Assembly (NCBI GenBank): GCA_963803145.1
Contig: CAWDLW010000018.1
Span: 1 to 64,000, forward strand
Length of the DNA stretch: 64,000 bases
DNA from: Methanotrichaceae archaeon
GTDB taxonomy: Archaea > Halobacteriota > Methanosarcinia > Methanotrichales > Methanotrichaceae
Direction of reading: 5' to 3'
Within the stretch, counting starts at the first letter, position 1. Each line of letters starts with the position of its first letter. This document shows, piece after piece, positions 28,083-60,597 of this stretch. Position numbers and translations under genes: made by a program. Under the pieces are notes generated by a model. That model had not been told where the DNA came from. It ran no database searches and saw only the letters and a list, made by a program, of their open reading frames with translations.

Positions 28083-28178
28083 TTACTGGTAACCATAAGG
28101 CCACATCATTCAAGCTCATCCTCTTGATGCGGGTTCTGTATTTGCCTTTACATGGGGGAGATGAGATTCTAGCACTTG
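28083..28178 (+). repeat. upstream element U, copy 1
   Basis: TTACTGGTAACC...GGTTCTGTATTTGCCT...GATGAGATTCTAGCAC aligns with 59856-59956 (minus) and 43788-43888. Confidence 0.7.
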
Positions 28179-30176
28179 AGCTAACTACCCAAAAGTTCTT
28201 CATTAGATCTTACAATGCTGAAGCAAGATAGAGGGAGATAATGTCAAAAAATTGGGTTCTTCTCACAGGCATTGTGGCTCTAATTTTTTTAACAGGGAAT
28301 TTGGCATTCGCTGTTGAAGTAGGGACACGTGAGAATCCAATTCCAATAGGTCAATCGGTTGATTTAGGAGATGGTTGGCAAATAACCGTGTTGAATGTCA
28401 TTCCTGATGCCAACGATATTGTACTTAAAGAAAATACATTCAATAAACCACCAAAGGCTGGAGATCAATTCTTCATTGCAACGGTATCAGTAAAATATAC
28501 AGGTCCAGATTTCGCTACATTTAATGGAGGCTATAGGCTTCGTGCTGTTGGACCATCTAGTGTAGGGTATAGCACCTTCCAGAATAATCCTGGTGTAATT
28601 CCAGACCCGCTTCCAAGCTCTGACGTGTTTACAGGTGGAGTCATTGAAGGAAACATCGGCTGGGAGATCAAGTCCTCTGATGCAAATGCTCTCGAGATGT
28701 ATGACAGCCCGCCATCTATAATTCACAATAATAACCGTACATTTATGGCATTGTTCAATCAGGGTTCTTCTTCCTCAACAAGTCCTCAAGGTACAAATGC
28801 ATGGGCTGGCAGTATGGCATTATTTAGTCAGGATTCATCCTCCATAACTAATCCTAAAGACGCAAATACTTGGATTTCCAAAGGTAATGATCTATATAAT
28901 CATGGCAAGTACAATGAATCCATACAGGCTTATAATAATGCCATTAATCTAAGTCCACAAGATGCAGAAGCCTGGTTTAACAAAGGCGATGCTCTCAAAC
29001 ACCTTGACAAATACGATGACGCAATCAAATGTTACGATGAGGTCATCAAAATCAATCCAAAAGATGTAGATGCATGGAATGGAAAAGCGTATGCTCTCGG
29101 TAATCTAGGTAAATACAATGAGACCATCCAAGCTTACGATAAAGTTATTGAGATCAATCCTCAAAATGCAGACACCTGGATCTACAAAGGTCTTATTTTG
29201 TGTGTGCAACATAAGTACGACGAGGCTATTCAGGCTTTTGATAAAGCCATCGAGATTAATCCTAAAGACGCTGAAGCTTGGAGTGATAAAGGCCATGCTT
29301 TCAATGATGTTGGCAAATATGATGATGCCATTCAATGCTTGGATGATGCTATTGGGATTAATCCTCAATTAGCTTATGCATGGACCGGCAAAGGCGATGC
29401 TCTCAAGGGTCAGGGTAAGTATGATGAAGCCCTTCAGGCTTATGACAAGGCTATCGAACTGGATCCTCAAGATGTATATACATTGTATAACAAGGGCGAT
29501 GCTCTTTATAAGCAAGGCAAATACAGTGAGTCTATTCAGGCTTATGATATGGCTGTCAAGATTAATCCTCAATATGCATATGCCTGGAAAGGCAAAGGCA
29601 ATGCTCTTGGCCTACAGGGCAAGTACAATGAATCCATTCAGGCTTATGATATGGCTATCAAGATTAATCCTCAAGATGCAGAAGCCTGGAACGACAAAGG
29701 TATTACTCTCTATTTCCAGGGAAAGTACAATGAGTCTATCCAAACATATGACAAGGCCATTGAGATCAATCCTCAGGATGCAAATGCATGGATTGAAAAA
29801 GGCGATGTCTTCTATTATCTTGGCAAGTATGATGATGCGGTGAAGGCGTACGACAATGCCGATCAGATAAAGCCATTAGATGCAGATTCCTTAGATAGAT
29901 ATGCAGATTCTCTCTTTAGATTGGGAAAGTACGATGAAGCCATCAAAAGCTACGATAAAGCCATTAAGATAAACCAATCAGATGCAGATGCCTGGTGTAA
30001 CAAAGGTGTTATTCTCGCTCTACAGGACAAATATGATGATGCCATTCAAGCTTTCGATAAGGCCATCGAGATCAATCCTCAAGATGCTAAAGCCTGGAAC
30101 GACAAAGGTTTTACTCTATATAGTCAGGGAAAGTACAATGAGTCTATCCAAGCATGCGATAGAGCTATTCAAATTA

Positions 30177-31259
30177 TAGTTAATCCACGTAATTTTTACC
30201 TCATAGATACCCTTAAATAATTAATATACGATATAGCCGTTCATGGGCAGGAAACCTGTAATTGTAAGACATATCTCGAAGGTAGAATTAGATCAATTGT
30301 ATAAAGATGAGAGAAACATAAGAATTAAAGAACGGCTACTAGCGATAATACATTTATACGAAGGAAAGAATGTATATATAGTAGCTGATATTCTTAAACG
30401 AAGTGAAAAGACAATAAAGAATTGGCTAAGCGATTGGAACAAACAAGGATATGATGGATTGATACCACAGAATAGAAACGGCAAAGAACCAATGATATCT
30501 TTTGATGAATGGGATAAAATTATCGAAGAGATTGAGGACAAAGGAATGACTATAAAAGAGGTAATAAAATATGCAAAAGACACAAGAGGCGTAGAATATT
30601 CGTATAAAGGTGGTTGGAAGATTTTAAGATCAATAAAGAAAGTCAAATATGGTAAACCATATATTAGAAATAATAAGAGGCCTGTTAATGCAGAAAGTTT
30701 TCTAAAAAAAGGATAGATTCAGTAATAACAACAGTCAAAGAACCTATTATTGGATTCCTTGATGAAAGCTCTTTGCAACAGCGACCTAATACACGCAGGG
30801 TTTTAAACACCCATATGCTAAATTATCAACCTGGAAAAGTTAGGTCTAGAACTGTTTTTGGGTTCATTGCATTGAATGGAAATGATGAAGTTATGGTCTC
30901 TCACTCATCCAAGAAAGAAGATTTAATGATCTTCGCCCAAAAATTGAGAAGTAACAATATTATGAGACCAATATGTATTGTCCTAGATAATGCTAGAATA
31001 CATCTAGCTAAGAAGTTTAGGGCATTAGCCCACGAACTTGATATCCATTTAATATATAACGTGCCATATTCCCCTGATTTAAATCCTATAGAGTTCGGTT
31101 GGAAGGATTTTAAAAGAGAGATATCAAAATATACTGATTTTGATGAAGCTATTGAGGATGCCCAAGATTGCGCTTTACAAATATTTTATTCCAATAAAGA
31201 TGGATACTCTAAGTCTTGGATAAAGCAGTTTATAAGGTAAAAAGTTGGGAGAATGACTA
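30177..31259 (+). mobile_element. IS630-family insertion sequence
   Basis: Imperfect IRs TAGTTAATCCACGTAATTTTTACCT / AGGTAAAAAGTTGGGAGAATGACTA; TA duplication at 30175-76 and 31260-61; AT-rich. Confidence 0.92.
30243..31240 (+). CDS. IS630 transposase (two ORFs joined by a probable -1 frameshift)
   Basis: HTH ORF 30243-30716; A7-GG run near 30704; -1 frame gives GFLDES...VLDNARIH...YSPDLNPIE (DDE). Confidence 0.88.
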
Positions 31260-31799
31260 TAATTCCTCAGATAATCTCGTTTGGGATAGCAAAGGCTCAG
31301 CTCTGTATGCATTAAGCAGATATGATGAGGCCATTCAAGTTTATGATAAGGCAATCAGGCTAAATCCTCAAGATATAGATGCTTGGATTGGAAAAGGTAA
31401 AGCTCTTAATAAAGCAGGCAAGTACAACGATTCTATTCAGGCATTAAACACCGCGATCCAGATCAATTCTTCAAATAATGATGCATGGGCCTGGAAAGGT
31501 TTTTCTCTTAGTGATTTGGGTAAATACGACGACGCCATTCAGGCATTCGACAGGGCGATTGCACTAAATCAGTCGGATGTAAGTTCTTGGTTGGGTAAAA
31601 TTGGAAGTCTTGAACAACAGGTCAAGATAAATGAAACTCTCGAAGCCAGTGATAAGTTCGTTGAGACAAACCCAAAATTAGGACTTGCCTGGCAAACCAA
31701 AGGCACTATCCTCAAGATACTTGGTCGTACTACTGAAGCAGATGCTGCCTTTGCCAAGGCCAAGGAGCTGGGATATACAGGTTGATTCAAACTCAACAA

Positions 31800-31908
31800 G
31801 TATGTATAACCTGTAGGCCATTACCCTTATTTTTTGAATCTTCAAAGCCAATACATATTTTTATAAATATCTTTCCGACCCAAAAAGGCGTGTGCCTTTG
31901 CGCTCCAG
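31800..31908 (+). repeat. downstream element D, copy 1
   Basis: GTATGTATAACCTG...TTTTTATAAATATCT...GCGCTCCAG; homologous to 44978-45085 and 58981-59087. Confidence 0.8.
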
Positions 31909-32546
31909 GTTCTATGCCTTACACAATCGATAGCAGTAGATTCAATCAATCGATATCAGCGACCCTTCAAGTTTACTTGATTGTCATTCCTGTAATGGCT
32001 GGAATAGTGGTTAACTCAAAAAGGCATTTAGGTCGATTTGTGGGTTTCCAGTTAGTTATCTAAAACAGTGCATATAATAGTACATACATTCCAGGTCGTA
32101 GATCCTCAAGCAGCTCTAGGGTGGGCATCGAAAAGGCTTAGGCGATTTCGAAGAGCGTACTTAAAACCTAAGCTTCAACAGGCTTATTCTTCCCTATATA
32201 CTTCGATCTGCTCTTCCCACCCTTCTTGGAATACAGATACCAATAAGGTCCATGCAGCTCCCCGCCAGGCTTTGCACAGTGGCACGATGGCTTGCCGCAT
32301 TTCACCGTCTGTTGAACATATGAGCCGCCACTCCTGGCAGGCTTAACCTCTATGATCTCAGTGCCCTTCTCCTTGGCTCGCTCCTGTATTTCCAAGGCTT
32401 CGAGCTGGGATTCAAGGATGGAAATGGCATTGTCTATCCAGGCCCTCTGCTCCCGGAGCACTTCAATCCTTTTTTTGAGGTCTCCAGCGCTCATAATGTC
32501 TTATGTGTAATCACTAGAATATCAATTTAGCTATGGCATATAAGAC
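31893..32546. repeat. 654-bp duplication, copy 1 (non-coding part + DUF6788 gene + promoter)
   Basis: Colinear with 47970-48623 and nearly identical in the non-coding part. Confidence 0.92.
32168..32494 (-). CDS. DUF6788-like small protein (coiled coil + CGKxxCxC...HGPYWY)
   Basis: VKCGKPSCHCAKPGGELHGPYWYLYSKKGGKSRSKYIG. Confidence 0.75.
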   Translation of the reverse strand: MSAGDLKKRIEVLREQRAWIDNAISILESQLEALEIQERAKEKGTEIIEVKPARSGGSYVQQTVKCGKPSCHCAKPGGELHGPYWYLYSKKGGKSRSKYIGKNKPVEA

Positions 32547-32674
32547 GCTGCATCCAGCTCTCTTTGAAAGCATACAGCCAATCCAGAATTAGCGCTTAAT
32601 ATGCCTATCTTCCAAAACTATTTGTAGTATAATCGGATATACATTCAGGATACAGAATTTAGGGGGCTGTAGCA

Positions 32675-33052
32675 ATGACGGAAAACAGCATAAGGGTACT
32701 TGAAGATAGGGATAGATTGTTTATAGATACCCTGCAGAGCCTGGGCGTTCGAAGACAAGAGGCAACCCTGATTGTCTGGATGAATGGGGCGGGAGAGGTT
32801 TCCTCTAAGGATATTGAACGAGGTGCAGGTCTTGGACAATCAGATGTAAGCAAGATCTTGAAAGCAATGCGGGAGAATGGCTGGATAGATACTTCAGAGA
32901 CTAATAATTCAGCAAAAGGCAGGCCTAGGAAGATCCACTCACTCAGTGCCTCATTGGATGATATCGTAAGGCACTATGAGCTGCAAAAGCTCAGGGAATC
33001 CATTTCGATCAGGAAATCAATACAGAGGTTGAAGGTGCTCGCAACAGCCTAA
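32675..33052 (+). CDS. winged-helix transcriptional regulator
   Basis: SSKDIERGAGLGQSDVSKILKAMRENGWI...KGRPRK..SL. Confidence 0.8.
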   Translation: MTENSIRVLEDRDRLFIDTLQSLGVRRQEATLIVWMNGAGEVSSKDIERGAGLGQSDVSKILKAMRENGWIDTSETNNSAKGRPRKIHSLSASLDDIVRHYELQKLRESISIRKSIQRLKVLATA

Positions 33053-33159
33053 GTTTGAGGGGTTCATAGAATTTGGTATACCCAATGCTAAACTCCTAAT
33101 CATTTTCTTTTCTCATAATGGATCAAATTTATATAGCTATTTGACCATATATTAGAATA

Positions 33160-34038
33160 ATGCGATTAAGCGAGAACGAGGTCGAGGCCCTGGTCCAAGT
33201 AACCGGTTCAGAGAGCACAATCCATCCTCGAGATCTCTCTCAGGACTTCGGGATAAGACCGGAGACGGTATCAAGGATCACCACTCGCCTTGAAGAAAAG
33301 GGTCTTTTGGAAAGGGAAGATCATAGAATAGTCCTAGCGGAGGCTTCACCAGCCGAGAGCTTCAAAAGGCTATATTATACTCATAGAGCATCTCCTTTCC
33401 AACTCATACTCGCCGATAGGAGGGTTGATCTTCTATACAGGCTGGACCAGAATCCAGAGAGCGTAGAAACGCTGTCAACAGAGACCGGCCTCCCCAGCAA
33501 GACAATATACTATTACCTGAAGGATTTCATTATATTGGGCATAGTGAGAAGAACCAAGAGTGTGCGGGGTTATCTATACTCTTTCAATTACATTCTATGG
33601 GGAGAGCTAAAGGATTTCGTAACCTCTCTATGGGAGTATAGGTTTAGACGCCTTATACCTAGGGATGCTCTGCTGATAAAGAGCTACAGTGATAGTGTCC
33701 TATTCAAGAGCATTAGACATCATGATGCCACACCAACATCATTTAGCGCCTACAGAGATTACGGGATCGACCTAGGCCTCAGAGATAACTATTATACGTT
33801 GCCCAAGAGAGAGCTATCCATAAAAGAAGTATTCATCCACTCCCTTGATTCTGCAGAGACCCTGCAGCAGAGGCTCTTTTGCATATTGTTCTACTTAAAA
33901 AACAGGGATAAACTGGAAGGCATCGAGCATCCTATGATAAGAGATATTAAGGCAGTTCTTCAGGGCGAGAGAATAAGGGGCTATCCATCCATTGAGGACA
34001 TAAGAGACAGGGCTGAGCTATATGACATCGAACTTTGA
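33160..34038 (+). CDS. double wHTH protein (putative antitoxin/regulator), copy 1
   Basis: Two HTH motifs; overlaps the downstream NTase gene; paralog at 53896. Confidence 0.75.
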   Translation: MRLSENEVEALVQVTGSESTIHPRDLSQDFGIRPETVSRITTRLEEKGLLEREDHRIVLAEASPAESFKRLYYTHRASPFQLILADRRVDLLYRLDQNPESVETLSTETGLPSKTIYYYLKDFIILGIVRRTKSVRGYLYSFNYILWGELKDFVTSLWEYRFRRLIPRDALLIKSYSDSVLFKSIRHHDATPTSFSAYRDYGIDLGLRDNYYTLPKRELSIKEVFIHSLDSAETLQQRLFCILFYLKNRDKLEGIEHPMIRDIKAVLQGERIRGYPSIEDIRDRAELYDIEL

Positions 34039-34711
34039 AAGGATATCTCGCCAGGAGGAGGTAGAGGAGTTCTTCGAGCAGCTAGGTGCTGCTTTATCTC
34101 GGCCAACTCAGGTATTGCTTATCGGCGGAGCTGCCATGCTTAAGTTCAAGCTGAAGGAGTCCACCAAGGATATAGATGTAGTCTGCAGAACTGATGAGGA
34201 TAAGGATGAGATCCTGCGCTGTACTCAGCGGCTAGGCTATCAGCCCACAGGCCCAAAAGAGAGACATGCCAGGCTGGGGCTTAATAGAGTTGCCATAAAG
34301 GGTGGGAGGACACTAGACATCTTTGCAGGAAAGATATCCTACGACTTTGGGCTGAGTGATGCCATGTGGAACCGTGCTCGAGTCCGCAAAGCATTCGATA
34401 AGGTAGAGGTGAGATATGCCTCCCTTGAGGACATCTTCATAATGAAGCTGATCGCTAACAGGGAAGGAGATGCATCTGACTGTGCCGTGTTGATTCCTGC
34501 TGGCCTCGATTTTGATGCGGTCTACAATGAGATCGAGGCTCAATACCTCAAGGCTTCAACAGATGAAGACCAGAAGATCTGGATAACCTATATCGAGGAG
34601 GGCATAGGGCGGCTTGAAGAAGATTATGGGGCAACGATACCTATTGCCGATAAGATCTCTGAGCTGGCGAATGGCTATAGGGAGAGGCTATATCTTAAGA
34701 GCCTATCCTAA
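34022..34711 (+). CDS. DUF6036/AbiEii-like nucleotidyltransferase, copy 1 (last codons replaced by IS5)
   Basis: LIGGAAM...TKDIDVV, IFIMKL..NR.GD..D; native end YLKLSSSQTS* lies beyond the IS (to 35583). Confidence 0.78.
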   Translation: MTSNFERISRQEEVEEFFEQLGAALSRPTQVLLIGGAAMLKFKLKESTKDIDVVCRTDEDKDEILRCTQRLGYQPTGPKERHARLGLNRVAIKGGRTLDIFAGKISYDFGLSDAMWNRARVRKAFDKVEVRYASLEDIFIMKLIANREGDASDCAVLIPAGLDFDAVYNEIEAQYLKASTDEDQKIWITYIEEGIGRLEEDYGATIPIADKISELANGYRERLYLKSLS

Positions 34712-35555: not shown

Positions 35556-35621
35556 TAAATTAAGCTCCTCTCAAACAAGTTAATTGTAGTGAAATTGTCG
35601 GAGCTGCAAGCTGGTGGACTC

Positions 35622-42286: not shown

Positions 42287-42868
42287 TTAAGTTCTTGATA
42301 ATGGATTGAATCCACGTATATCATATGCCTCCTTCACCAGCACAGGGGCTATGGAAGCATAAACCTCTGTTGTAGAGAGCCTCTTGTGACCCACCTGCTT
42401 CTGGATCATAGGCAAAGGCACGCCGCCCATCAAAGCTGAGACTATATGGCTATGCCTGAGTATATGTGGAGTAACCTTTTTCCTGTTGAGCTTCATCCTG
42501 GGCGAAACCTCCTGGACCCCGGCCTCCTTTGCCAGGCGGTCTATGGTTCTCAGCACTGTTTTGGTGCTAAGGTGCCCAGAGCTTCTGCCAGGAAACAGCC
42601 ATTCTTGCCCAGGCTTGATGCTATCTTGGATGGCCTCTAAGGTGGTCTGGCTCATCCTAACAGCCCTGAAATGCTTTGTCTTCGTTCTGCTGCTCTCGAT
42701 CCTTATGAATCCGTTTTGAAAATCGATATCTGAGACTCTATTAGTAACTAGTTCACCGACTCTGCAGCCCATGTCGTAAAGGCAGAGTAGGATAAATCTG
42801 TCTCTACCCTTGGCCACAGAAAATAGGGCCTCTATTCCTATAGTGTCTAGGTACTTGATGGAGTCCAT
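42287..42868 (-). CDS. tyrosine recombinase/integrase, catalytic domain only
   Basis: R (GCRVGEL), K (TKTK), HILRH, GH and Y (TTEVY) all present in 193 aa. Confidence 0.92.
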   Translation of the reverse strand: MDSIKYLDTIGIEALFSVAKGRDRFILLCLYDMGCRVGELVTNRVSDIDFQNGFIRIESSRTKTKHFRAVRMSQTTLEAIQDSIKPGQEWLFPGRSSGHLSTKTVLRTIDRLAKEAGVQEVSPRMKLNRKKVTPHILRHSHIVSALMGGVPLPMIQKQVGHKRLSTTEVYASIAPVLVKEAYDIRGFNPLSRT

Positions 42869-42939: not shown

Positions 42940-43263
42940 AGGTACTAAGCGACGTTTGACCTAGAGCCTCATTTTTCATCTTTTGAGCCTTCTGCACGGC
43001 TGCTTTGGCATCCATCTTCCTGTAGCGGTCCCAGATTGACATTCAGCACCTCGGAACCTTCTCGCCACGAGACCATCCTGTAGGCAAAGGTCTTGAGCCC
43101 TTCTTTAAGGTCTTCTCCTTCTGCCATATCTGCAGGGCCCCAAGCCTGGCAGTATTTTTCTAGGCCTCAGCCGTGAGTCTATCCATCTCATCCTGCCTCA
43201 TCCTTCTTGCAGGCTTCATCTGCCTAGTCTTGTTATGGCCTTAGATTCTCTCTTCTGCTTCAT
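42940..43263 (-). pseudogene. frameshifted small basic protein (EKTLKKG..TFAYRMVSWREG..V.NVNLG..RKMD...A.QKA.KMK.EALG)
   Basis: Hand translation across frameshifts; ends are approximate. Confidence 0.45.
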
Positions 43264-43400
43264 GGCCGCTTTCTTTTTGTGGTTTAGATTGTTGTGATGT
43301 ATCAATGTAATTTCTGAGTTCCATTATAATCAGAAATTTACCTTGGGCTTAAAGCCAATTTAATCCTACCAACAAGTGTATATTCTAAAATGATTAGATA

Positions 43401-43888
43401 GTTATTGCCGCGAAATAGGGCTGTAGCCGATTAAGCTTCGGGGGCAGTATGTCACCTCCAATGGAGCGCCTCGCTTAACAGCGAAGTCTTCGGTGAAAGC
43501 GAATTAAGGCATACATCGTTCAGTTCGTATATAAGCGCGGCAAGTAACGTCGTGTGCAGGCAAGGTGAGAGCAGGCTCTTCATCTTCGATGAAAGGGTCC
43601 CCGTAAGAAAGGCGCTGTGCCAGATACCAGTGCTGTCTCGCATTGCCTGTGTGAAGGCACGGGGCGGGCTTAAAATCGCCACTACGGTGGTTGATTCCTC
43701 TGAGGAGGGCGCTGTGAGTCAGCGTTTGGCTCGCCTAAAACTTCACAGTACTATTCTCTTGGGTATATTCTGGGTTTTGATGTTCGCTTACTGGTAATTG
43801 CCAGGCAATGCAATCGGTATGCTGCCTACAGATATGTTTTTGATAAAAGTGTTTACGTGCGGGGGATGAGATTCTCGCACCTTTTTTT
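43401..43888 (+). ncRNA. putative large structured non-coding RNA (unknown family)
   Basis: Three nested multibranch domains, many G-U pairs, a cUACGg tetraloop, a possible pseudoknot, TATA-like sequence ~20-25 bp upstream, terminal hairpin + T7. Confidence 0.6.
43788..43888 (+). repeat. upstream element U, copy 2 (hairpin + T7, terminator-like)
   Basis: TTACTGGTAA...GCCTACAG...GTGCGGGGGATGAGATTCTCGCAC-CTTTTTTT. Confidence 0.7.
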
Positions 43889-44015
43889 GGCTTAACAATT
43901 TATGCCAGAAGAGCACATATAACAGTCTGACGTTTAGGTGCTGGGAGCAACATTATATGCAATAGACCCCTTTCTGACCATAATTGATATAACGTTTGAA
44001 TATCTATCCAAATAT

Positions 44016-44921
44016 ATGAAAAATATTGAAATGTTCTATCTATTATCTTTGATAGCATTACTGCTTGTAGTCTCTTCTTTTGGAGCACTAGCAGAACCAA
44101 ATACATCTGTAAACATGAATACCACGGCTCTAAAAGAACTGGTGATAAATTCAGAGAACAACTTAAAATCCTATAGTTTAAACCTGTCTGAAAATGAAAA
44201 CATAATGCTCATCAACTCCACGAGCCACAATACGACGTCTCGGGTCAACATACAGACTCTAGGGGCCATCGCTATCAATCGCACCAGCAAATCAGCGAAG
44301 GCAGTCACTGCCTCCCTCGTCCTGCCGATAGGAGATGTGGTGGATGCTGCTACCATATCGACAGAAGTATACTATATCAATGATACTTTATATAGCGAGG
44401 TTGACGGAAATTGGACTGCGATGAAGCTGGCTTTGCCCGGAGCCTTTGGAACCAATCAGGACATGATTAGACAAACTGCGATGCTATTGAATGCATCCAC
44501 TATCAGACTTATCGGTATTGAGGCCATAAACGGTGAAAAGTATTACGTTGTGGAGATATCTCCTCAAAGTAGTGCTATCTCTTCCCTTTTCAAACAGGAG
44601 ACTGGTTCTATCAGCTCTATGATCCCCCAGAGCATCGAGAACCTCAGTCATCTCTTCAACAATATTCAGCTCAGATATATCACCTGGATAAATACAGCCA
44701 GCTATCTCCCAGTGCAGGAGTTTGCCATTGTAAACATCACGACCACGCCAGGAATGCTCGGCTATCCGGGAGGGAATAGCACGGAAGTCTACATCAACTC
44801 TTCCATTACAACGAGGTTCAGCGATTTGAATAAGACAATAAATATAATGTTGCCTGAGGCTGCAAAGAGGGCAGAGATGTTGCCTTTAAACAGCTCCGGC
44901 ACGCCACTGGCAATACCTTAA
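44016..44921 (+). CDS. secreted LppX/LprA-like (DUF6612-like) protein
   Basis: Signal peptide; EVYYINDTLY..VDGNW, GIEAING...Y.VEI, WIN..SYLP, FSDLN..I.I.LP; many NxS/T sequons. Confidence 0.65.
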   Translation: MKNIEMFYLLSLIALLLVVSSFGALAEPNTSVNMNTTALKELVINSENNLKSYSLNLSENENIMLINSTSHNTTSRVNIQTLGAIAINRTSKSAKAVTASLVLPIGDVVDAATISTEVYYINDTLYSEVDGNWTAMKLALPGAFGTNQDMIRQTAMLLNASTIRLIGIEAINGEKYYVVEISPQSSAISSLFKQETGSISSMIPQSIENLSHLFNNIQLRYITWINTASYLPVQEFAIVNITTTPGMLGYPGGNSTEVYINSSITTRFSDLNKTINIMLPEAAKRAEMLPLNSSGTPLAIP

Positions 44922-44977
44922 GTCCAGAGGATCAGCAGAAAATAAAAATGATCGAGAGTAGGGCCATATTTGCCCAA

Positions 44978-45085
44978 GTATGTATAACCTGATTCCAGCC
45001 CACCTTATTTTCCAACGACTATAGGGCTGGAAACAATTTTATAAACATCTTTCTGAGCTACAAATGCGTTGGGTCTGCGCTCCAG
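44978..45085 (+). repeat. downstream element D, copy 2
   Basis: GTATGTATAACCTG...TTTTATAAACATCTTTC...TGCGCTCCAG. Confidence 0.75.
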
Positions 45086-45164
45086 ATATTATGCTTGAAT
45101 GCGGGCCTTCCGATGCTCCATGTTAGCGTTCCTAAATCCAGGTCTATCATCCTAGATTATACCT

Positions 45165-45497
45165 TTAATGCCGCCCACTCTGATACCTTCGCCGATAAAG
45201 CGCCTCTTGTGCCGTCCTCACTTCAGGCAGCAGCTGCAATGCCCTTTTCTCCAAATCCACAAGCAAATTCCAACTCTCGCCCATCATATCAGCAATCTGC
45301 GCTTCTGCGAACCCAACCGATTGCAAGTTGAGGTACTCCTCTATTGCCGCTTCTGCTGCGGACTGTCCCGGCACATCCAGTTCATCCAGCGCCCTGCCAA
45401 GTGCCAAAGCCTGCACGCTATCCTCATCCAGCACGCCGGCCTTCAGCATCCCTGCCTTCAGAAGTACTGCACGTCGCTCAAGCGCCCTTAGGTTCAT
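45165..45497 (-). CDS. hypothetical protein (provirus-like)
   Basis: 110-aa ORF with GGAGGG RBS; no recognised motif. Confidence 0.5.
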   Translation of the reverse strand: MNLRALERRAVLLKAGMLKAGVLDEDSVQALALGRALDELDVPGQSAAEAAIEEYLNLQSVGFAEAQIADMMGESWNLLVDLEKRALQLLPEVRTAQEALYRRRYQSGRH

Positions 45498-47425: not shown

Positions 47426-47969
47426 AATTCAAGCCTCCTTCTGGAAATTGTAACTTGATTAATAAAGGTGTTGAGAGACCTAATGCGAATCTCGTTGATA
47501 ATGTGGTGATGACAGCCTCAAATTTTTACCCAATTATAAGCATCTTAGACTTCTGCTTGAAAAGAAGCAAGTAGTTCTTGGCCATAATACTAACGTTGCA
47601 TATACATTGGCACGACGGCCAAGTATGCTTAAAAGATGTCTTAAATTTAGAGGTTTAAATGAAATTCTTAAGGGCATAAGGTTGTATATTTACAGGTAAA
47701 TATATGCCCAAACCCTGGCTAGTAGTACCACATAGCTCAAACGTGCTAAGGAGATATAGTACTACCGATGGAGGTTGCACGTATTTATTGCGCAGTTTAT
47801 ATACACCATTTTATACAACCTGCAGAGCTCCGCAAAATCGAGCAAAGTACTCTTCCAATTAACTCATCATTCCATAAACTATGGAATGCCAGGTTTACAA
47901 TCGACTGATAACGAAAAACCGATAGCAGCAAAATCAATTTTACAAACCGCTATCCAGAGCGCAAAGGTA

Positions 47970-48623
47970 TGCCTTTGCGCTCCAGGTTCTATGCCTTCCA
48001 CAATCGATAGCAGTAGATTCAATCAATCGATATCAGCGACCCTTCAAGTTTACTTGATTGTCATTCCTGTAATGGCTGGAATAGTTGTTAACTCAAAAAG
48101 GCATTTAGGTCGATTTGTGGGTTTCCAGTTAGTTATCTAAAACAGTGCATATAACAGTACATACATTCCAGATCGTAGATCCTCAAGCAGCACTAGGGTG
48201 GGCATCGAAAAGGCTTAGGAGATTTTGAAGATCGTACTTAAAACCTAAGTTTCAACAGGCTTATTCTTCCCCACATACTTCGATCTGCTCTTCCCACCCT
48301 TCTTCGAATACAGATACCAATATGGCCCATGCAGCTCCCCACCAGGCTTTGCACAGTGGCATGAGGGCTTGCCGCATTTCACCTTCTGAAGAACATATGA
48401 GCCGCCACCCATGGCAGGCTTAACCTCAATAATCTCCGTGCCCTTCCACTTGGCTCTCTCTTCGATTTCCAAGGCTTCGAGCTGGGATTCAAGGATGGCA
48501 ATGGCATTGCCTATCCAGGCCCTCTGCTCCCGGAGCACTTCTATCCTTTTTCTGAGATCCTCAGTACTTATAATGTCTTATATGTAATTTTTAGATATCA
48601 ATCTGACCATTGGCTCATAAGAC
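47970..48623. repeat. 654-bp duplication, copy 2
   Basis: Colinear with 31893-32546. Confidence 0.92.
48245..48571 (-). CDS. DUF6788-like protein, copy 2 (ATG changed to ATA; GTG at 48538 possible)
   Basis: Paralog of 32168-32494. Confidence 0.6.
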   Translation of the reverse strand: MSTEDLRKRIEVLREQRAWIGNAIAILESQLEALEIEERAKWKGTEIIEVKPAMGGGSYVLQKVKCGKPSCHCAKPGGELHGPYWYLYSKKGGKSRSKYVGKNKPVET

Positions 48624-49193: not shown

Positions 49194-49257
49194 TTATAGC
49201 AGATTATGCTTATAGCAGATTATGCTTATAGCAGATTATGCTTATAGCAGATTATGT
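49194..49257. repeat. 4 x 16-bp tandem repeat TTATAGCAGATTATGC
   Basis: Read directly; the last unit ends in T. Confidence 0.95.
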
Positions 49258-53715: not shown

Positions 53716-53895
53716 TATACGTTTGGCTGCATGACACGACTAAGAACTGATAGCTGGAAATTTCCTGGCACCGAGTCCTGAATTGAGAAGAATCTATGGA
53801 CGATATCGTTATATCGCTGAAAAGTGAATAGATCGTCCTAATTTTCTTAACCTAAGATCAAGTTTATATATGCATTTGATCCTATATTAAGAATA

Positions 53896-54780
53896 ATGCA
53901 TCTCAGCAAGAACGAGGTCTACGCTCTAATTTCAATAACAAAATCAGAGACTCCAATGCATCCCCATGATCTCCTGGAGCTTGGACTTCAAAGAGAGACA
54001 ATATCCCGGATCATAACACACCTGCAGGAGAAGGGGCTGGCTGAACGGAAGAGCGGAGAGATAGTCCTGGCCAGGACACCTCCAGCTGAGGCGTTCAAGA
54101 GGCTCTATTACACTCACAGGGCGGCTCCTCTGCAGGATCTCCTCTCGGATAGAAAAGTGGAGCTTCTGTCAAGACTTGATCACAGTCCAAAAAGTTTGGA
54201 GACCCTGGCCAGGGAGACGGGCATCCCAAGCGATACCATCTACTATTACCTGAAAGGCTTTCTCCATTTGGGTGTTATCGAGCGGTCTAAAAAGGGCAAG
54301 GCATACCAATACTGCATCAACTACATCCTCTGGTCTGAACTGAAGGACTTCGTGACCTCATTCATTGAATATCAGGCACTGCGTCTCGTTCCGCGTGAGG
54401 CATTGATCATTAAAAGCTATGGAGATAGCGTACTATTCAAGAGCTTGAGGCAGCAGGACGCCACGCTCACATCATTTAGCGCCTACAGAGATTATGGGAT
54501 CGAGCTGGTCCTCAGGGATAACTACTACACTCTGCCCAAAAGAGAGCTATCTATCCAGGAGATCTTTATCCACTCCCTGGACTCGGCAGAAAGCATTTCC
54601 CAAAGACTTTACTGCATCCTTTTCTACTTGGAGAACATAGAACGGCTCGAGGATGTCCAGCACCCGATGATGGAGGAGATAAGAGCAGTCCTGAAAGGAG
54701 AGCATATCAAGGGCTATCCAATCCTGGAAGAAGTAAAAGAGCAGGCTGAGCTGTATGGTATCACAATTATCGAGCCGTGA
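53896..54780 (+). CDS. double wHTH protein, copy 2
   Basis: Colinear paralog of 33160-34038. Confidence 0.75.
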   Translation: MHLSKNEVYALISITKSETPMHPHDLLELGLQRETISRIITHLQEKGLAERKSGEIVLARTPPAEAFKRLYYTHRAAPLQDLLSDRKVELLSRLDHSPKSLETLARETGIPSDTIYYYLKGFLHLGVIERSKKGKAYQYCINYILWSELKDFVTSFIEYQALRLVPREALIIKSYGDSVLFKSLRQQDATLTSFSAYRDYGIELVLRDNYYTLPKRELSIQEIFIHSLDSAESISQRLYCILFYLENIERLEDVQHPMMEEIRAVLKGEHIKGYPILEEVKEQAELYGITIIEP

Positions 54781-55456
54781 TGATGTCAATAAGATACTGA
54801 GATGGTTGGGAGAGCGTGTTGACCAGCCCATACAGGTCTTAGTAATAGGTGGCGCTGCAATGCTTGAATATGACCTTAAGGATGCCACCAAGGATATCGA
54901 TCTGGTATGCAGGGACAATGTAGGCAAGGCCAGCCTTCTCAGGGCTGCTCAGGAGCTGGGCTTCAAGGTTGTTGGGCCTGAGAAGAGGCATGCTCGTTTA
55001 GGCCTGGATAGAGTGGCAGTCAAATGAAGTCACACCCTGGACATATTCGCAGGCAGAGTCTCCTATGACTTCGGCCTGAGTGAGGCTATCCTTTGCCGAG
55101 GGCGTAATACCAAAACTTTCGGGAAGGCTGAGATGATTTATGCTTCCCCTGAGGATATCTTCATCCTGAAGCTGATAGCCAACAGGCCGCGTGATTTTGA
55201 GGATTGCTCGGTCATTGCCTCTGCTGGCCTGGATTACGAGGCAATCTATTCCGAGATAGAGGCTCAATACCACAAAGCCGCAGACTCTGAGGTGAAGCAG
55301 AAGGTTTGGATAACCTATATTGAAGAGGGCATTGGGCGGCTGGAGGAGGATTACCGGCTAAGGATACCAATCGCAGATAAGGTTTCTGAGCTGGCGGATG
55401 GTTATAGGGAGAGGCTATATCGAAAGCTGACCTCGTCTGCGGGCACAAGAACTTAG
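54755..55456 (+). pseudogene. DUF6036-like nucleotidyltransferase, copy 2, single in-frame TGA at 55025-27
   Basis: ORFs 54755 and 55133 are in the same frame; the TGA aligns with Gly in copy 1. Confidence 0.8.
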
Positions 55457-55561
55457 AATTAGATATGAAAATTGAATTCCGCGAACAGGACAAACGAATG
55501 TTCAAATTTCATTCCTCCTTACAAAGCGCTTTAAATAGATTGTCTTCTGTTATATCAACAT

Positions 55562-55969: not shown

Positions 55970-56533
55970 AGCTGCCTTAGGTTATGCATGTGGCTATATC
56001 TATTGACCTACCATTTTCAAGCATATCATCGGGTTTCTCATTCATTTCTCTCTTTTGCCATTTGGGCTTTAGGCCCTTACCCTAGCCAGCTATCCCATGA
56101 GTTTGAACGGTTTATATAATCTCTTTTTCTATTAAAAAAGTAAGTAAGCGATGCACCAATCACTGCGCCTATTATTATAGCAATCAAACCTTGCAAAGTG
56201 GCCAAGCTCTGCAAAGCAGCTATAACATCCATATTTATCATTGCCTCCAAAATTGCCACCATCCCCATTTCTTGATCTCCTCTCTAGGCTCCAAGGATAG
56301 CTGGCTTATGCTCTACGTGAGCTGGCTTATGTGGCCTTCCAGTTAATCCATTTTATCTAAAACATGTATCTTTTTATGTAATTCCTCTATTCCTTTATTG
56401 TAAAAATGCTCCACTGGTATTGATTTCAACCAAAACTACTTATCTTCATAGGGCCAATAAGCATACTATGGCAGGAGTTCTTGAGCAGTTACAAAGGAGA
56501 CCTCGGAGGCAACTGATAGGCGGTAATGTATCC

Positions 56534-56770
56534 ATGCCCGGGACTAATCCCAAGGTCCTGGAGCTCCAGGCAGCCAAAGAGATCCTGGCTGAGGTTTTTG
56601 ATATTAATGCCTCAGAGGTTGATGAAATGCTCAAGCGGCGTTATGAAGAGAGCTTGGAGAGGCCAAAGACATCATATTCGCGCAGAAAGAGAACGAAGGG
56701 CGAGCCACTACTCAAACATCGGTATAATGAAGTTGAGGTGTGGCCGATGGAATTCTGCCTGGCCCATTAG
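56534..56770 (+). CDS. hypothetical protein
   Basis: MPGTNPKVLELQAAKEILAEVF...; start uncertain. Confidence 0.5.
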   Translation: MPGTNPKVLELQAAKEILAEVFDINASEVDEMLKRRYEESLERPKTSYSRRKRTKGEPLLKHRYNEVEVWPMEFCLAH

Positions 56771-56909
56771 ATTAGGTTTCTGCCTTGCAAAAATGCAGAA
56801 CAGCCTGGCAGCTCTGGCACAATAGCGATAAACCCTTCATCCTCCTCACTGTAGAAGATCTCGATTGCATACAGGGCTTATATCTCCTATAGACACTAAG
56901 AGCTCCCCC

Positions 56910-57155
56910 TCAAACATCTGGCTTATACCCCTGTGGCTCATTCACAGGTTCTATAGTGGCTATGGCATGCTTGAAGACAAGGATTTGCCCTTTAGCGGTT
57001 TGGATCAGGAGCTCATAGGGGTTGAAAGCCTCTAGGATTCCGGTAATTGGCTGTCCTCCTGATAGTAGGCGTATCATGACCTTCTTGCCCTTAAGTTTGG
57101 GGATGAATTCAAATTGCTTCAGTACAGGCTTTGCTTTCGCTGAATCTTCTTCCAT
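56910..57155 (-). CDS. Hfq-like Sm-fold protein
   Basis: Sm1 (V.IRL.SG..I.G.LEAF..YELLI) with short loop and Hfq-type Sm2 LVFKHAIATI; GGAG RBS. Confidence 0.8.
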   Translation of the reverse strand: MEEDSAKAKPVLKQFEFIPKLKGKKVMIRLLSGGQPITGILEAFNPYELLIQTAKGQILVFKHAIATIEPVNEPQGYKPDV

Positions 57156-57406
57156 AGATTATCTCCAGAATTGCCACGAGTTCTTAGCTTTGGCCCATCA
57201 TTTTCCGTATTTCTTCATAGAGCTGTGGATCTGCTTCTTTAAGTGATTGCTCAATTACCTCCCCCAGCTCCAAGCCTATTGAGTATCGAGGTGTTTTGGC
57301 GGGTCCTCAAGTCTGGCCTGGTCCTTCAGGGCCTTTCTTTTCTCGCGTACTCCGCTTGTGAGTTTCATGCTATCTGCTTTCACAAAAAATTCATCTTGTA
57401 TTGTGG

Positions 57407-57541
57407 CCTTCTATGTTGTCCCTCTTGGGGTAGAGGGAATGGGAGGCTTAAAAATGAGTATAAGGGCGATATTAAGGGATGTTTTAGATCATGTTATGTT
57501 CACTTTGTATTTCATATTATATTTGCGCCGGTGGTGAGATA
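57407..57541. repeat. dispersed repeat C, copy b
   Basis: Homologous to 45937-46067. Confidence 0.8.
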
Positions 57542-57636
57542 AAGTTATATAATAATTAAAAACATAGATATTATAATTACACCTTCATAAAAAAAATCTT
57601 TATAAACCTGCAAAATCAGTTGTTAAGGGGATATTA

Positions 57637-57816
57637 TTGAAGATAGAATCAATATTGATAATACTAGTATCGCTAATGTTTCCTACTGCTATGGCGGCAA
57701 TAGGTTCTACAAGTGATACCACGCCGCCGAGCGTTATTAGTTTCAATTTTGGACCGAGATTGGTAGATGTATCTAGCGGATCTAAGAATATCACATTCAC
57801 AGTAAGGTACCAGTAA
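57637..57816 (+). pseudogene. truncated secreted protein (signal peptide + DTTPP linker)
   Basis: MKIESILIILVSLMFPTAMA..SDTTPPSVISFNFGPRLVDVSSGSKNITFTVRYQ*. Confidence 0.5.
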
Positions 57817-57908
57817 GCCCACAACACAGCCGATTGAGAATGAAATTTCCCTGTTGCGAAGGGACCCCTATAAAACTGATAAATATACCCTGTACAGAAT
57901 TATGAAGG

Positions 57909-58451
57909 ATGCTTTTATTTGCGCACCTCGGCTTTACCCTGGCAGCGGGCCGGTTCATAAGATGGGTGAACCTGGCCTACCTGGCTCTGGGTTCAATCCT
58001 TCCCGATATAATTGATAAGCCGATGGGTTTGATGGTCTTCGGAACGCCCGAAATGAGCAGGACATATGCCCATACTCTTCTGTTCCTGCTGATTCTGGTG
58101 GTCTCGGCTGTTTATTTGAAAGACGTCAGACTGGCATCGGTCTCTGTCGGTGTTTTTGCTCATCTGATATTGGATTCCATGTGGCAATCGCCAGTCTTTC
58201 TATTCTGGCCTCTGCTGGGAAACTTTCCTCAGGCTCCCGATGTCGGGACATCTGGGACATCCAGTTACATACAGGGACTACTCGACGAACTGAGAAACCC
58301 CATGGTAGGCATACAGGAGGTGCTAGGGTTGTCATATCTTCTATTCCTCGCATTCGAGCTTAGATCTACATTAATGGCTAGATATCAAAATGTAGTATCC
58401 AAGGGCAAAGACATGGCGGCTACGATCCAAACGCGCCTCAAAAGCGATTAG
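57909..58451 (+). CDS. membrane-bound metal-dependent hydrolase (YdjM-like)
   Basis: FAHLG, GSILPDIIDKP, R.YAHTLLF, HLILD.MW, FWPL. Confidence 0.85.
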   Translation: MLLFAHLGFTLAAGRFIRWVNLAYLALGSILPDIIDKPMGLMVFGTPEMSRTYAHTLLFLLILVVSAVYLKDVRLASVSVGVFAHLILDSMWQSPVFLFWPLLGNFPQAPDVGTSGTSSYIQGLLDELRNPMVGIQEVLGLSYLLFLAFELRSTLMARYQNVVSKGKDMAATIQTRLKSD

Positions 58452-58620
58452 GATGAGATTAGCTTCAATTTCCGCTTATAATGGAAATTAAAAATTACAT
58501 ATCAGTTATGTAAAAGATATCTCTATGAAGTGATAGTACGGAGGTCTCATTCCCCGTACCTCCTCTCTTCCGGCGTTATTTTTTTCCTAAAGCGCAAGTT
58601 ATAGCATTCATTAAGATACC

Positions 58621-58875
58621 ATGAACCCAGAGGCCGTCCTGGCGGTTCTTCCCGACAGCAAAGAAGATGTACTATCCATAAAAGAGATAGCTCACGCAAT
58701 GGGCTTGGACATCTCCTCACATACAGAACAAATTAGAATGGAAAAAAAACTCACTAGAGTTCTAAGAACACCGATCAAATGGGGCTGGGTAGCTTACGAT
58801 ATCAGGCAGAGCGAGAACGGCAATAGAGCCTGGCATAATGCCTACTGGAAAACCGAGCTGGCAAAGTCTGCATAG
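58621..58875 (+). CDS. small wHTH-like hypothetical protein
   Basis: SIKEIAHAMG...L.RVLR...KWGWV. Confidence 0.55.
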   Translation: MNPEAVLAVLPDSKEDVLSIKEIAHAMGLDISSHTEQIRMEKKLTRVLRTPIKWGWVAYDIRQSENGNRAWHNAYWKTELAKSA

Positions 58876-58980
58876 ATCCATCTACGGACATATATTTAAC
58901 TTATATAATGATAACCTCTTTGTTTATCCACCTATTATATAGACATTATCGAATATTACATCTGCACGCAAATGTATGAT

Positions 58981-59087
58981 CTGGAGCGCAAAGGCATGCC
59001 TTCACAGGTCGGATAGATGTTTATAAAAATGTGATACGGCTTCGAAGATCCAAAAAATGGAGGAACGAGCTTACAGGTTATACATAC
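58981..59087 (-). repeat. downstream element D, copy 3
   Basis: Minus strand GTATGTATAACCTGTA...TTTTTATAAACATCT...GCCTTTGCGCTCCAG. Confidence 0.8.
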
Positions 59088-59102
59088 CAAAGAGAGGTAG
59101 GA

Positions 59103-59789
59103 TCAACCTGTATACCCCAGCTCCTTAGCCTTGGCGTATGCTTCATCAGCTTCTCTGGTGCGACCTAATGCATTGAGGATCATGGCTTTGCCACTCCAGG
59201 CGTATGTATATTGGGGGTCGATCTCTATTGCCTGATCAAAAGCTTGAAGTGCCTCCTCATATTTATCCTTCATACCTAAAGCAACACCCTTAAGGTACCA
59301 TGCATCTGCATCATATTCGTTTAGATTGATGGCTTTATTATAAGCTTGGACAGCCTCATCATATTTACTTTGATTTTCTAGGTCCAAACCTACTTGTAGC
59401 CAATAGCTTGCATTCTGTTCTTCTGTATTCGCCTTGTTATCGTTTATCTGGCCAGTTAAATGCGATTTAAACTTCAATGTGTTAATGAAATGCATAGTCT
59501 GATCATCGAATGTGCCATTAGCGAAAGTGGTATAATCATTCATTATTTTAATAACTGGATAGTTATCACTTGTACTGATATTAATATAATGCTCTTTGTT
59601 CTCATCAAAGAACAGAAAAGCAGTAGTTCCTCCTGATGTCTGCCAGCCCGTTGGATATTCGACTGTAAAGAATGGTCCATCATAGGTTGAATATTCGATC
59701 GCTTTTGCTATGGAAACAGGCATTAAACATAAAGCCAAAATCGAGCATATACATAGCACCAAAGCTATAATCCTCTTTCCGCTTTCCAT
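59103..59789 (-). CDS. secreted PsbP-like + TPR protein
   Basis: Signal peptide, FTVEYPTGW, 3 TPRs, ends AKAKELGYTG. Confidence 0.85.
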   Translation of the reverse strand: MESGKRIIALVLCICSILALCLMPVSIAKAIEYSTYDGPFFTVEYPTGWQTSGGTTAFLFFDENKEHYINISTSDNYPVIKIMNDYTTFANGTFDDQTMHFINTLKFKSHLTGQINDNKANTEEQNASYWLQVGLDLENQSKYDEAVQAYNKAINLNEYDADAWYLKGVALGMKDKYEEALQAFDQAIEIDPQYTYAWSGKAMILNALGRTREADEAYAKAKELGYTG

Positions 59790-59855
59790 AAATTATCCCC
59801 TCTGGATTTTAAGTATCACCCTAACCAATCACTTTCAAAGATAAATACTTTCAAG

Positions 59856-59956
59856 TTACAGGTGCGAGAATCTCATTCCTCCGCACCTGTAGGCGGATAT
59901 AGAACCAGTATCAATGGGATAGGTATCGAATATTACAGCTTGAAGGTTACCAGTAA
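59856..59956 (-). repeat. upstream element U, copy 3
   Basis: Minus strand TTACTGGTAACC...TACAGGTGCG-GAGGAATGAGATTCT-CGCACCTGTA (10-bp perfect stem). Confidence 0.75.
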
Positions 59957-59988
59957 ACTATGAGATGATGTTCTCAAAGGAGCTGGGA

Positions 59989-60048
59989 TCAGCCTGTATA
60001 CCCCAGCACCTCGGCCTTGGCGAAGACTGCATCGGCTTCTGTATCACG
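59989..60048 (-). pseudogene. isolated TPR-gene 3' end (RDTEADAVFAKAEVLGYTG*)
   Basis: Hand translation matches the conserved C-terminus of the three TPR genes. Confidence 0.7.
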
Positions 60049-60081
60049 GTAAAGTACCTCTCCCTCATTTTCATGGGATGA

Positions 60082-60351
60082 TTATGTAGCATCCTTACTG
60101 AATACTTCGATATAATGATCGATATCTTGTCTCAAGTTCTCGTAAGGGCTTGATTCACATGGGAGATCTGATTCTTTTGCAAATTTTAATAATCTCACGA
60201 TAAACCGTTTATCTAAAGTATAATTCCCAACTTGGGGATTATTCAATATAACATTATACAGATATTCATATATCTCAATGCAATTACGTCTTTTGAGCAC
60301 GTTCTCCCATTGTGCCCAAATTGTTCCTTCATCATTATCCAATGTTATCAT
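60082..60351 (-). CDS. hypothetical protein
   Basis: 89-aa AT-rich ORF with AGGAG RBS. Confidence 0.45.
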   Translation of the reverse strand: MITLDNDEGTIWAQWENVLKRRNCIEIYEYLYNVILNNPQVGNYTLDKRFIVRLLKFAKESDLPCESSPYENLRQDIDHYIEVFSKDAT

Positions 60352-60519
60352 CTCCTGAAACTATTAGGTAGGCTAAAGCAAAAAACATTTGGATACCTTT
60401 TTAGCCTTCGTCGTATTTTTACCGCCAGAACCGCCACCAGCTCTTCGCCTTGGCCCTCATCTTCATCGGACGGTTAATGATACTATCTCGCCGGATGTCC
60501 GGATCCGCGTATATTGTGG

Positions 60520-60597
60520 CATTATATCCTTATAATAATATCTTGCAGTTCAAGCATATCTAAAAAACGAGGGGATAGATTACAGGTTGTACACACT
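60520..60597 (-). repeat. degenerate element D, copy 4
   Basis: TTATAATAAT...ATCTAAAAAACGAGGGG..GATTACAGGTTGTACACAC aligns with copy 3; lies just downstream of the SnoaL gene. Confidence 0.55.

Follow-up and report, generated by a model that had tools for sequence, protein, structure and literature searches.

Integron cassettes carry at their 3' end an attC site, whose structure is conserved and whose sequence is variable, and they lie next to the integrase gene, intI. With this and other systems of framed genes in mind, we examine here a stretch of 64,000 nt of DNA from a Methanotrichaceae archaeon (the window), in which genes for exported proteins are each preceded by one element of about 95 bp, termed U, and followed by another of about 115 bp, termed D. 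U and D share with integrons the tandem, co-oriented variable cargo, a recurring separator element and a hairpin-forming sequence at the joint. Unlike integrons, they have no adjacent integrase and no attC-type structure, the promoter-like boxes apparently lie inside the cassettes, and the bounding elements are two different ones, one of them with a ragged edge.

The neisserial NIME/dRS3 elements (neisserial intergenic mosaic elements) are described, in the sections of PMC1797815 that deal with them, as spacers of 50-150 bp with 20-bp inverted repeats on either side, and their host is a naturally transformable bacterium. According to the same sections, these repeats border surface genes, alternative genes are found in syntenic slots, and the joints of exchange fall in or next to the repeats, which were proposed to promote recombination, either homologous or through a specific recombinase (PMC1797815). 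Minimal mobile elements of the same genus are the matter of a related source (PMC3787668). In our comparison, the intergenic mosaic and minimal mobile elements would be the closest described logic. As far as those sections go, the likeness lies in lineage-specific non-coding repeats around surface genes, in the alternative genes and in the joints at the edges. In contrast to them, U and D appear as two distinct oriented modules, one 5' and one 3', in an archaeon, and they have promoter- and terminator-like signals and would come from the flanks of one gene family.

On the upstream side only, putative mobile promoters have been described as similar sequences found before unrelated genes of one genome, with at least 80% identity over at least 50 nt upstream of non-homologous genes; their means of movement is not established (PMC3575422). 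Mostly pairs were found in the survey that described them, and identity averaged 92% (Nijveen, Matus-Garcia and van Passel 2012, PMC3575422). In contrast, U is present in about 20 upstream copies that have a downstream partner module, are for the most part about 70% alike and are conserved across genera. In the literature that we searched on Methanothrix/Methanosaeta intergenic repeats, miniature transposable elements bounded by inverted repeats (MITEs) and insertion sequences (IS), we found no account of U or D.

We see in the U/D frame an archaeal variant of gene replacement framed by repeats. The modules resemble a gene slot open to reuse more than they do an integron, and we give a probability of about one in two to the reading that U and D form the fixed frame of expression slots for accessory exported proteins, the cargo of which would be replaced by recombination. 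As part of that reading as a whole, and at the same odds, U and D would be two non-coding DNA modules specific to the Methanothrix family.

The U and D modules and the genes they enclose

The window corresponds to positions 1-64000 of contig C18 in an assembly of 4.13 Mb and 51 contigs (this genome is labelled G000, its contigs C1 to C51). Copies of U and D in G000 were collected by iterated nhmmer with a cut-off of E <=0.01, and positions 26000-64000 were rescanned with covariance models, filters off (R1 for U, R2 for D), which gave three full U, three full D, two partial D and one weak remnant of the U hairpin. An earlier sequence-only reading of the window had described three U-gene-D units of shared layout and orientation; both methods located them where it had placed them, with the motifs that it quoted.

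28083..28175, + strand: U copy 1 (nhmmer E 1e-19; R1 84 bits)
28241..31785, + strand: cargo 1, a secreted TPR gene with a signal-peptide-like start, interrupted by an IS630-type insertion
28241-30220 and 31216-31785, + strand: the open reading frames (ORFs) that form the TPR parts of cargo 1 (Pfam TPR_1, E 7e-122 and 8e-28)
30243-31240: the IS630-type insertion in cargo 1, with ORFs 30243-30716 (helix-turn-helix, HTH_23) and 30773-31240 (DDE_3)
31799..31914, + strand: D copy 1, 14 nt 3' of the TPR stop (nhmmer E 1e-23; R2 90.5 bits)
43788..43880, + strand: U copy 2 (U2), of subfamily B (nhmmer E 4e-18); homology with C2 stops at its final bases
43938..44921, + strand: cargo 2, an exported DUF6612 protein (PF20316, E 3e-6) with a paralogue in C1/C46
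44977..45090, + strand: D copy 2 (nhmmer E 5e-22; R2 77 bits)
58975..59088, - strand: D copy 3 (nhmmer E 6.5e-27)
59103..59789, - strand: cargo 3, exported, with a C-terminal TPR and the ending ..AKAKELGYTG* (Pfam TPR_1, E 1.5e-19)
59862..59956, - strand: U copy 3 (U3), 35 nt past the end of an ORF with a TPR-type tail (nhmmer E 5e-20)

The frame of cassette 1 stands as that reading had it, and what it took for an Ig-TPR gene is a single TPR gene split by the insertion. For cargo 2, the sequence makes an internal start at MKNIEMF.., before the hydrophobic stretch, likelier than the listed GTG at 43938. Three degenerate elements accompany these units:

47932..47995, + strand: partial D, 3' half only (R2 positions 57-120, E 8.5e-11)
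58536..58561, - strand: weak U-hairpin remnant (R1 positions 70-95, 14 bits, E 0.16)
60530..60597, - strand: partial D, 5' part, after the SnoaL gene at 60630-61076 (R2 positions 3-70, E 2e-6)

The last of them confirms a degenerate D that had been noticed behind the SnoaL gene (Pfam SnoaL, E 1e-23), as a partial copy only, and a U-like hairpin announced at about 58537-58560 is found again as a remnant, and a weak one. The D copy expected at about 47630-47708 amounts to a minus-strand match of 5.5 bits (E 0.52); the actual partial D lies at 47932-47995, and the sequence that follows it is that which follows D copy 1 (97% over 300 nt).

U opens with TTACTGGTAAC and closes with the imperfect palindrome GTGCGGGGGATGAGATTCTCGCAC. 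It holds two palindromes, TTACTGGTAA at the 5' edge and GTGCG-N14-CGCAC at the 3' edge. D consists, in this order, of GTATGTATAACCTGTAA, a run of five to six T, TTTTATAAAYATCTTTCCG and GCGCTCCAGATTnTAT; its start bears, in reverse, the related word TTAC[AT]GGT[AT]A. The profiles recover 22 copies of U and 33 of D in G000, and further ones in Methanotrichaceae relatives. When D was counted within 5 kb of each U, by strand and by side, 18 of the 22 U had a same-strand D downstream, while no opposite-strand D was found either downstream (0/22) or upstream (0/22). Chance would come nowhere near such a pairing. A same-strand D also lies upstream of six of the 22 U, which corresponds to tandem arrays with a D-U spacing of 7 nt, and these arrays stem from just two independent D-U junctions. 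Conversely, among the 33 D there are 15 that no U has as its nearest downstream partner, so that the independent occurrence that the sequence-only reading had considered is observed for D and not for U. The small contigs C1, C46 and C23 are repeats of one locus, and they may be either binned strain variants (the assembly contamination is 6.8%) or true duplicates; once such repeats are excluded, 15 non-redundant U-D pairs are left.

U and D are paired, co-oriented and sharp-edged, and they enclose unrelated genes. The edges are best seen for U: homology between copies breaks off no more than 3 nt from the 5' edge in 32 of 54 pairs, and no more than 3 nt from the 3' edge in 26 of 54. D has a ragged 5' edge, past which homology continues for 11-400 nt in 48 of 99 copy pairs. 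When copies are aligned, the columns of U have a mean identity of 73% and those of D one of 71%; a handful of blocks are strongly conserved, and the modules look like old copies under selection, not like recent transposition. This bears on the idea of two MITE-like families inserted independently before and after genes, to which the discrete size of about 100 bp, the many intergenic copies and the richness of this genome in IS elements would lend themselves. We hold it highly improbable, as the ends, read by eye, show no terminal inverted repeats or target duplications, the copies are about 70% alike and not near-identical, and neither strict pairing nor co-orientation is expected from independent insertion. 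The start of U and the reverse of the end of D were also compared by eye and have a weak likeness only.

Neither module behaves as a gene or as a structured RNA. In D, no single frame is open throughout the copies, and a small gene was ruled out because the open frame is not kept and the indels shift it. RNAalifold gives no consensus pair for D and four for U. The U structure that we tested (5' stem and hairpin) is paired in 84% of cells, with a double-sided change in one pair, and 441 of 500 shuffles equal the observed pairing. The U hairpin has no covariation, and its sequence is kept without compensating changes. Rfam gave no match in the window at the gathering threshold and none at E <=1 in 43200-45200. 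A riboswitch or leader RNA was dropped on these grounds (no covariation, no Rfam family, few consensus pairs), as were a group II intron, a C/D-box RNA and IS200/IS605 ends, candidates suggested by motifs alone, whose other defining parts are absent and on which Rfam is silent. The same data distinguish the modules from attC: D has no consensus pairs, and what is conserved in the U hairpin is the sequence.

The cargo is diverse. The U-D pairs hold 30 ORFs of at least 100 aa, which form 17 BLASTP clusters; the recurring ones are a family of 383-498 aa that has no Pfam match, TPR proteins and DUF6612 proteins. Among 33 scanned proteins, 19 have no Pfam match; the matches of the cargo are to TPR and DUF6612, and the cargo outside the recurring families is mostly without one. 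The first co-oriented ORF begins 52-135 nt after U in 15 of 18 pairs. A slightly different set, again 15 of the 18, includes a co-oriented ORF whose start is hydrophobic and like that of a signal peptide, as called by a crude home-made rule. The sequences thus suggest that the cargo consists mostly of accessory, exported proteins.

Differing cargo between conserved flanks

The clearest comparison is that of C1 and C23, which are alternative versions of one locus beside a gene that we take, from its N-terminal sequence, to encode adenylosuccinate lyase. They are 99.3% identical across the first cassette, the D-U junction and the entire second U, and they part at the base that follows ..CTCGCACG, that is, after the last base of U. 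Past this point the leaders differ, and so does what follows them: in C1, a 301-aa DUF6612 gene and that contig's own D; in C23, a 383-aa gene, then the remnant of a TPR tail and a D unlike that of C1. Identity resumes at 97-98% from the end of D. In a second comparison, C2 matches the window at 95% identity through 480 nt and U2 and is unrelated to it from the hairpin of U on; two mismatches fall within the final 12 nt of U2. The DUF6612 units of the window and of C1 are alike at 87% in U, gene and D, and the DNA before U is not alike. Therefore, U may either remain with the backbone (C1 and C23) or move with the cargo (window and C1).

Two cases have the form of putative mobile promoters: the U2 region of the window and C2 (95% over 584 nt, unrelated downstream), and C8:82176 with C15:404046, in which an upstream gene, X (described below), and the spacer are 88% identical, U is aligned and the cargo is different. 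Alternative genes within conserved flanks, as in minimal mobile elements, are found in C1 and C23 and also between G000 and its sister species G002, represented by a near-complete genome, at four loci (the flanks in C5, C8:366k, C30 and C42) where the flanks are 86-90% identical and the cargo is different. At these loci, KatG and a Rieske protein stand against a 107-aa protein and a TPR protein; 645 and 247 aa against 494 aa; TPR against DUF5677; and a 539-aa protein with a reversed U against genes that, from their N-terminal sequence, we assume to be of the hybrid-cluster type. The earlier proposal that U-D pairs enclose variable genes is hence borne out, by unrelated cargo families and by differing cargo in near-identical copies and in a sister species, and the alternative of an invariant cargo fails on the same contigs and genomes.

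The KatG and Rieske segment was itself observed in both species (G000 C30:86157-88796; G002 L024, the L numbers designating loci of relatives), at different loci, where it is 96.5% identical while the flanks of the species are 86-88% identical; this suggests a recent transfer.

Most U-D units adjoin housekeeping genes, such as those of adenylosuccinate lyase and of S-adenosylmethionine (SAM) synthetase, the latter presumed, like the former, from the N-terminal sequence. Among 80 adenylosuccinate lyase loci from metagenomes, two have any match to U or D, and in the seven that were read the upstream genes are unlike one another (7/7), so this locus is variable in general and has little bearing on U and D. 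An apparent replacement at 57806/59050, seen in a metagenome contig, was discarded, the contig being better explained as the C11 paralogue, which is 86% alike and shares an internal deletion.

Origin and distribution of the frame

The D copies that stand alone lie behind secreted TPR genes ending in ..AKAKELGYTG*, the tail that also directly precedes D copy 1. When the 150 nt before each D were read, an ..ELGYTG* tail, intact or decayed, was present at no fewer than 10 D copies, including copies behind non-TPR genes, such as those of the 383/494-aa family. In G002, a TPR-tail remnant of 64 nt separates KatG and D. These remnants vary in length, and the 5' edge of D is ragged because they precede it. 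On the other side, five to six U copies sit 31-37 nt past a TPR-type tail, and the window offers one example:

60082..60351, - strand: short ORF with the TPR-type tail ..AEVLGYTG*, upstream of U3, recognized as a sequence repeat

G001, a further relative, holds a minimal unit: U, a small frameshifted TPR gene, and D. We infer from these sequences that the frame descends from the flanks of an expanded family of secreted-TPR genes and that other genes were recruited into it.

Forty relatives were surveyed, 24 of them in the same family, the Methanotrichaceae. U was found in six of the 40, which represent four genera of this family, the genus of the window included. D was found in 13, namely 12 of the 24 family members plus a single weak match (E 1.5e-4) in a different family of the same class. 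D exceeds U in number in every relative (for example 16 and 6, 24 and 8, 20 and 3). Among 185,579 species genomes, the exact D pattern is found in three records, all Methanothrix or Methanotrichaceae. As far as sequence comparison goes, U and D are lineage-specific and old.

This distribution also bears on a second claim of the sequence-only reading, that the cassettes might be the variable slot of a repeatedly integrated family of viruses or plasmids. A contig of 4.1 kb in IMG/VR, the only one there with the D pattern, has a terminase-like gene and another, for a secreted protein, behind which D lies, and the island in the window contains IS elements, AbiEii-type pairs and a recombinase fragment, as such a family would have it. 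Nevertheless, no viral contig of IMG/VR has the U pattern, the units lie mostly beside housekeeping genes and share no element backbone, and there is no tRNA gene in the window or in eight loci scanned. The claim thus finds little support, and we consider it very unlikely.

Promoter-like signals, terminator-like signals and a candidate regulator

A promoter matrix for the TFB-recognition element and TATA box (BRE/TATA) was derived, by seeded refinement, from 38 tRNA upstream regions of G000; scores of at least 8 have a genome background of 6e-4 per position. In D, a BRE/TATA-like match occupies a fixed place and reaches this score in seven of 22 copies on the reverse strand and in three of 22 on the forward strand. 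D also has a conserved T5 run at D positions 34-37, 20 nt past the start. Oligo-T is an archaeal termination signal, and the run may be read as a putative one. Downstream of U, boxes scoring 8.3-10.2 are found 4-64 nt past the edge in four of 17 copies, which include all three members of the 383-498-aa family in this 17-copy set. A leader starting at a promoter directly upstream of U found no support, the matrix giving nothing above background there. Since boxes follow U and none above background precede it, U is read as a putative upstream control module and not as a leader; D is read as a putative terminator with a second promoter-like box.

A small gene, X, co-occurs with the modules, and the window has one copy:

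58621..58875, + strand: X, small winged-helix gene, convergent on D copy 3 (six matches in G000; AlphaFold pLDDT, the predicted local distance difference test, 87.5)

X is placed either divergently at about 65 nt from U or convergently at about 100 nt from D. Its AlphaFold layout is that of a winged helix, and the best Foldseek matches are PadR/ArsR-type and TFIIE winged helices, at E 5e-3 or weaker; compared with solved structures by sequence, it gives nothing below E 0.07. The named matches among its relatives are all Methanotrichaceae metagenome-assembled genomes, and the genome search gives the same family only. X is present in nine of the 12 D-positive family genomes and in none of the 12 D-negative ones, and this, with its predicted fold, makes it a candidate regulator of the modules.

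These observations can be joined into another explanation, in which U and D would be regulatory DNA only, a shared regulon signal and a terminator under selection, while the variable cargo would reflect hypervariable islands. The conserved blocks within otherwise diverged copies, the old distribution in the family and a co-occurring winged-helix gene that adjoins U all fit it, and synteny breaks are found without U or D too, for example upstream of the adenylosuccinate lyase gene. Yet the recent joints fall at the edges of the modules, and the presence of shared flanks on unrelated genes requires recombination at or near these flanks. We find this explanation doubtful.

Palindromic repeat P and the recombinases

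Upstream of the second cassette, the window contains the following features:

42287..42868, - strand: tyrosine-recombinase ORF of 193 aa, catalytic domain only (PF00589 E 3e-30, residues 12-173)
43309..43338, no strand: P, palindromic repeat of 30 bp; the conserved stretch that precedes U2 has it at its left end (28 sites in G000)
43340..43787, + strand: non-coding conserved stretch of about 450 nt, from P to U2 (C2 95%, C11 82%)

P has arms of 9 bp and a loop of 12 nt. Of its 28 sites, 12 are no farther than 3 kb from a U or D, a zone that makes up 5% of the genome; P usually stands 350-2100 nt upstream of U. Two short tyrosine-recombinase ORFs have P near their 5' ends, at 43 nt and 440 nt. 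The conserved stretch between P and U2 has a predicted RNA fold with a z of -2.4 and no Rfam match. The recombinase at 42287-42868, which had been called intact, has stop codons in its upstream frame. In all, G000 has 13 PF00589 matches; four have a U or D within 5 kb, and there is no recombinase with a consistent link to U/D in this genome.

Several P sites also mark the end of a GC-rich repeat of about 225 nt, without Rfam match at E <=1, which was observed in G002 (L021 2723-2946) and in G000 (C17:239438-239662, C25:24475, C16:49297, C8:368439, C2:10769 and C38:5349). Another P is located at 58467-58496 of the window, in a region where 57517-58506 is a presence/absence allele of 990 bp that includes a YdjM-like gene: a contig of metagenome run X1 joins 57516 directly to 58507, at about 99% identity. 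The right edge of this allele comes as near as 6 nt to P and 30 nt to the remnant of the U hairpin.

A site-specific cassette system, similar to integrons, would have a recombinase or a hairpin-nicking enzyme cut in two places, the end of D and the 3' foot of the hairpin in U, so that leader, gene and D would move as units between slots. Two recent comparisons do show base-precise joints where the U hairpin ends, and one shows such a joint where D ends; edges are sharp in many older pairs, the orientation is strict and there are tandem arrays with the 7-nt D-U spacing; cargo in either orientation, and the enrichment of P near U together with its position next to the two short recombinase ORFs, would also agree with such an enzyme. 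Nonetheless, a PF00589 match is found within 5 kb of just two of the 15 non-redundant pairs, and the ORF of the window is short. The D 5' edge is ragged, with TPR-tail remnants of unequal length, U is at times kept with the backbone (C1 and C23) and at times carried with the cargo (window and C1), and the hairpin is kept in sequence without compensating changes. Moreover, no more than two D-U junctions are independent, and no circular, empty or skipped form of U/D was found in four metagenome runs, in which contigs were short and cover patchy, with almost none over cassette 2 and no adequate flanks at U/D joints. An integron or recombinase mechanism is thus not supported for U and D. The earlier notion of cassette exchange holds as to the variable slot bracketed by U and D, and it finds no support as to an integron-like running by the 42287 recombinase. 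We judge it unlikely that this is an archaeal platform for surface-protein cassettes in which a dedicated enzyme, acting on the 3' hairpin of U and perhaps on P, swaps promoter-gene-D units, and the integron-like cutting scheme above is given the same low standing.

Weighing of the gene-slot reading

The reading that we prefer, that of U and D as a reusable gene slot, would work as follows. The frame would have derived from the flanks of the secreted-TPR gene family, U being an upstream control module placed just before gene-specific core promoters and D a 3' module in which an oligo-T signal for termination comes before a BRE/TATA-like box that is nearly palindromic. Since U and D are repeated at 15 loci or more, they may act as portable homology, and homologous or microhomology-mediated recombination would then replace the cargo, with joints at the module edges, most of all where the U hairpin has its 3' foot. 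The candidate regulator would be X, a protein that co-occurs with the modules.

Several observations weigh against this scheme. The cargo is on the opposite strand in two of the 18 G000 pairs (C23:207873 and C18:86884); in L033 and L042, two further U-D pairs, it is reversed, and in L037, L038 and L048 a gene of the opposite strand has its 3' end next to U (all five loci being from another genus or from G001); a simple succession of 5' module, gene and 3' module leaves this opposite-strand cargo unexplained. Both recent joints fall within the last ~12 nt of U, and evenly spread homologous crossovers are unlikely to give both of them (a rough estimate is 1-2%), an argument tempered by the fact that the U hairpin is the longest conserved block. 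As to the signals, none of 17 copies reaches the 90th percentile of the null upstream of U with the tRNA-derived matrix, clear boxes after U are limited to four of these 17, and the box of D is nearly palindromic, so its direction is ambiguous; the promoter, terminator and control roles are all read from motifs. Finally, the co-occurrence of X and D is a lead, weaker than its counts, as the genomes share ancestry and are not independent.

Other features of the window

Three further observations were made in the window. A long array of 18/36-nt repeats at 18695-20180 encodes a cysteine-rich protein of C-x-T-G type. Pairs of a winged-helix gene and a DUF6036/AbiEii-type nucleotidyltransferase gene lie at 33160-34711 and 53896-55456, as two diverged copies (~70-80%). 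An intergenic unit of 16 nt is present in four perfect tandem copies at 49194-49257.

Significance for Methanothrix

Among the producers of methane from acetate, Methanothrix is one of the main ones, and to our knowledge its surface proteins and its accessory genome are poorly understood. If the gene-slot reading is confirmed, U, D, X and P would give a sequence handle on the variable repertoire of exported proteins in Methanothrix genomes and metagenomes, and they would define a candidate regulon with a candidate regulator. It would also provide an archaeal case of repeat-framed gene replacement, which has been described so far mainly in bacterial pathogens. If the joints proved to be made by an enzyme, U and D would represent a new kind of cassette system, an analogue of the integron with other sites and another catalyst.

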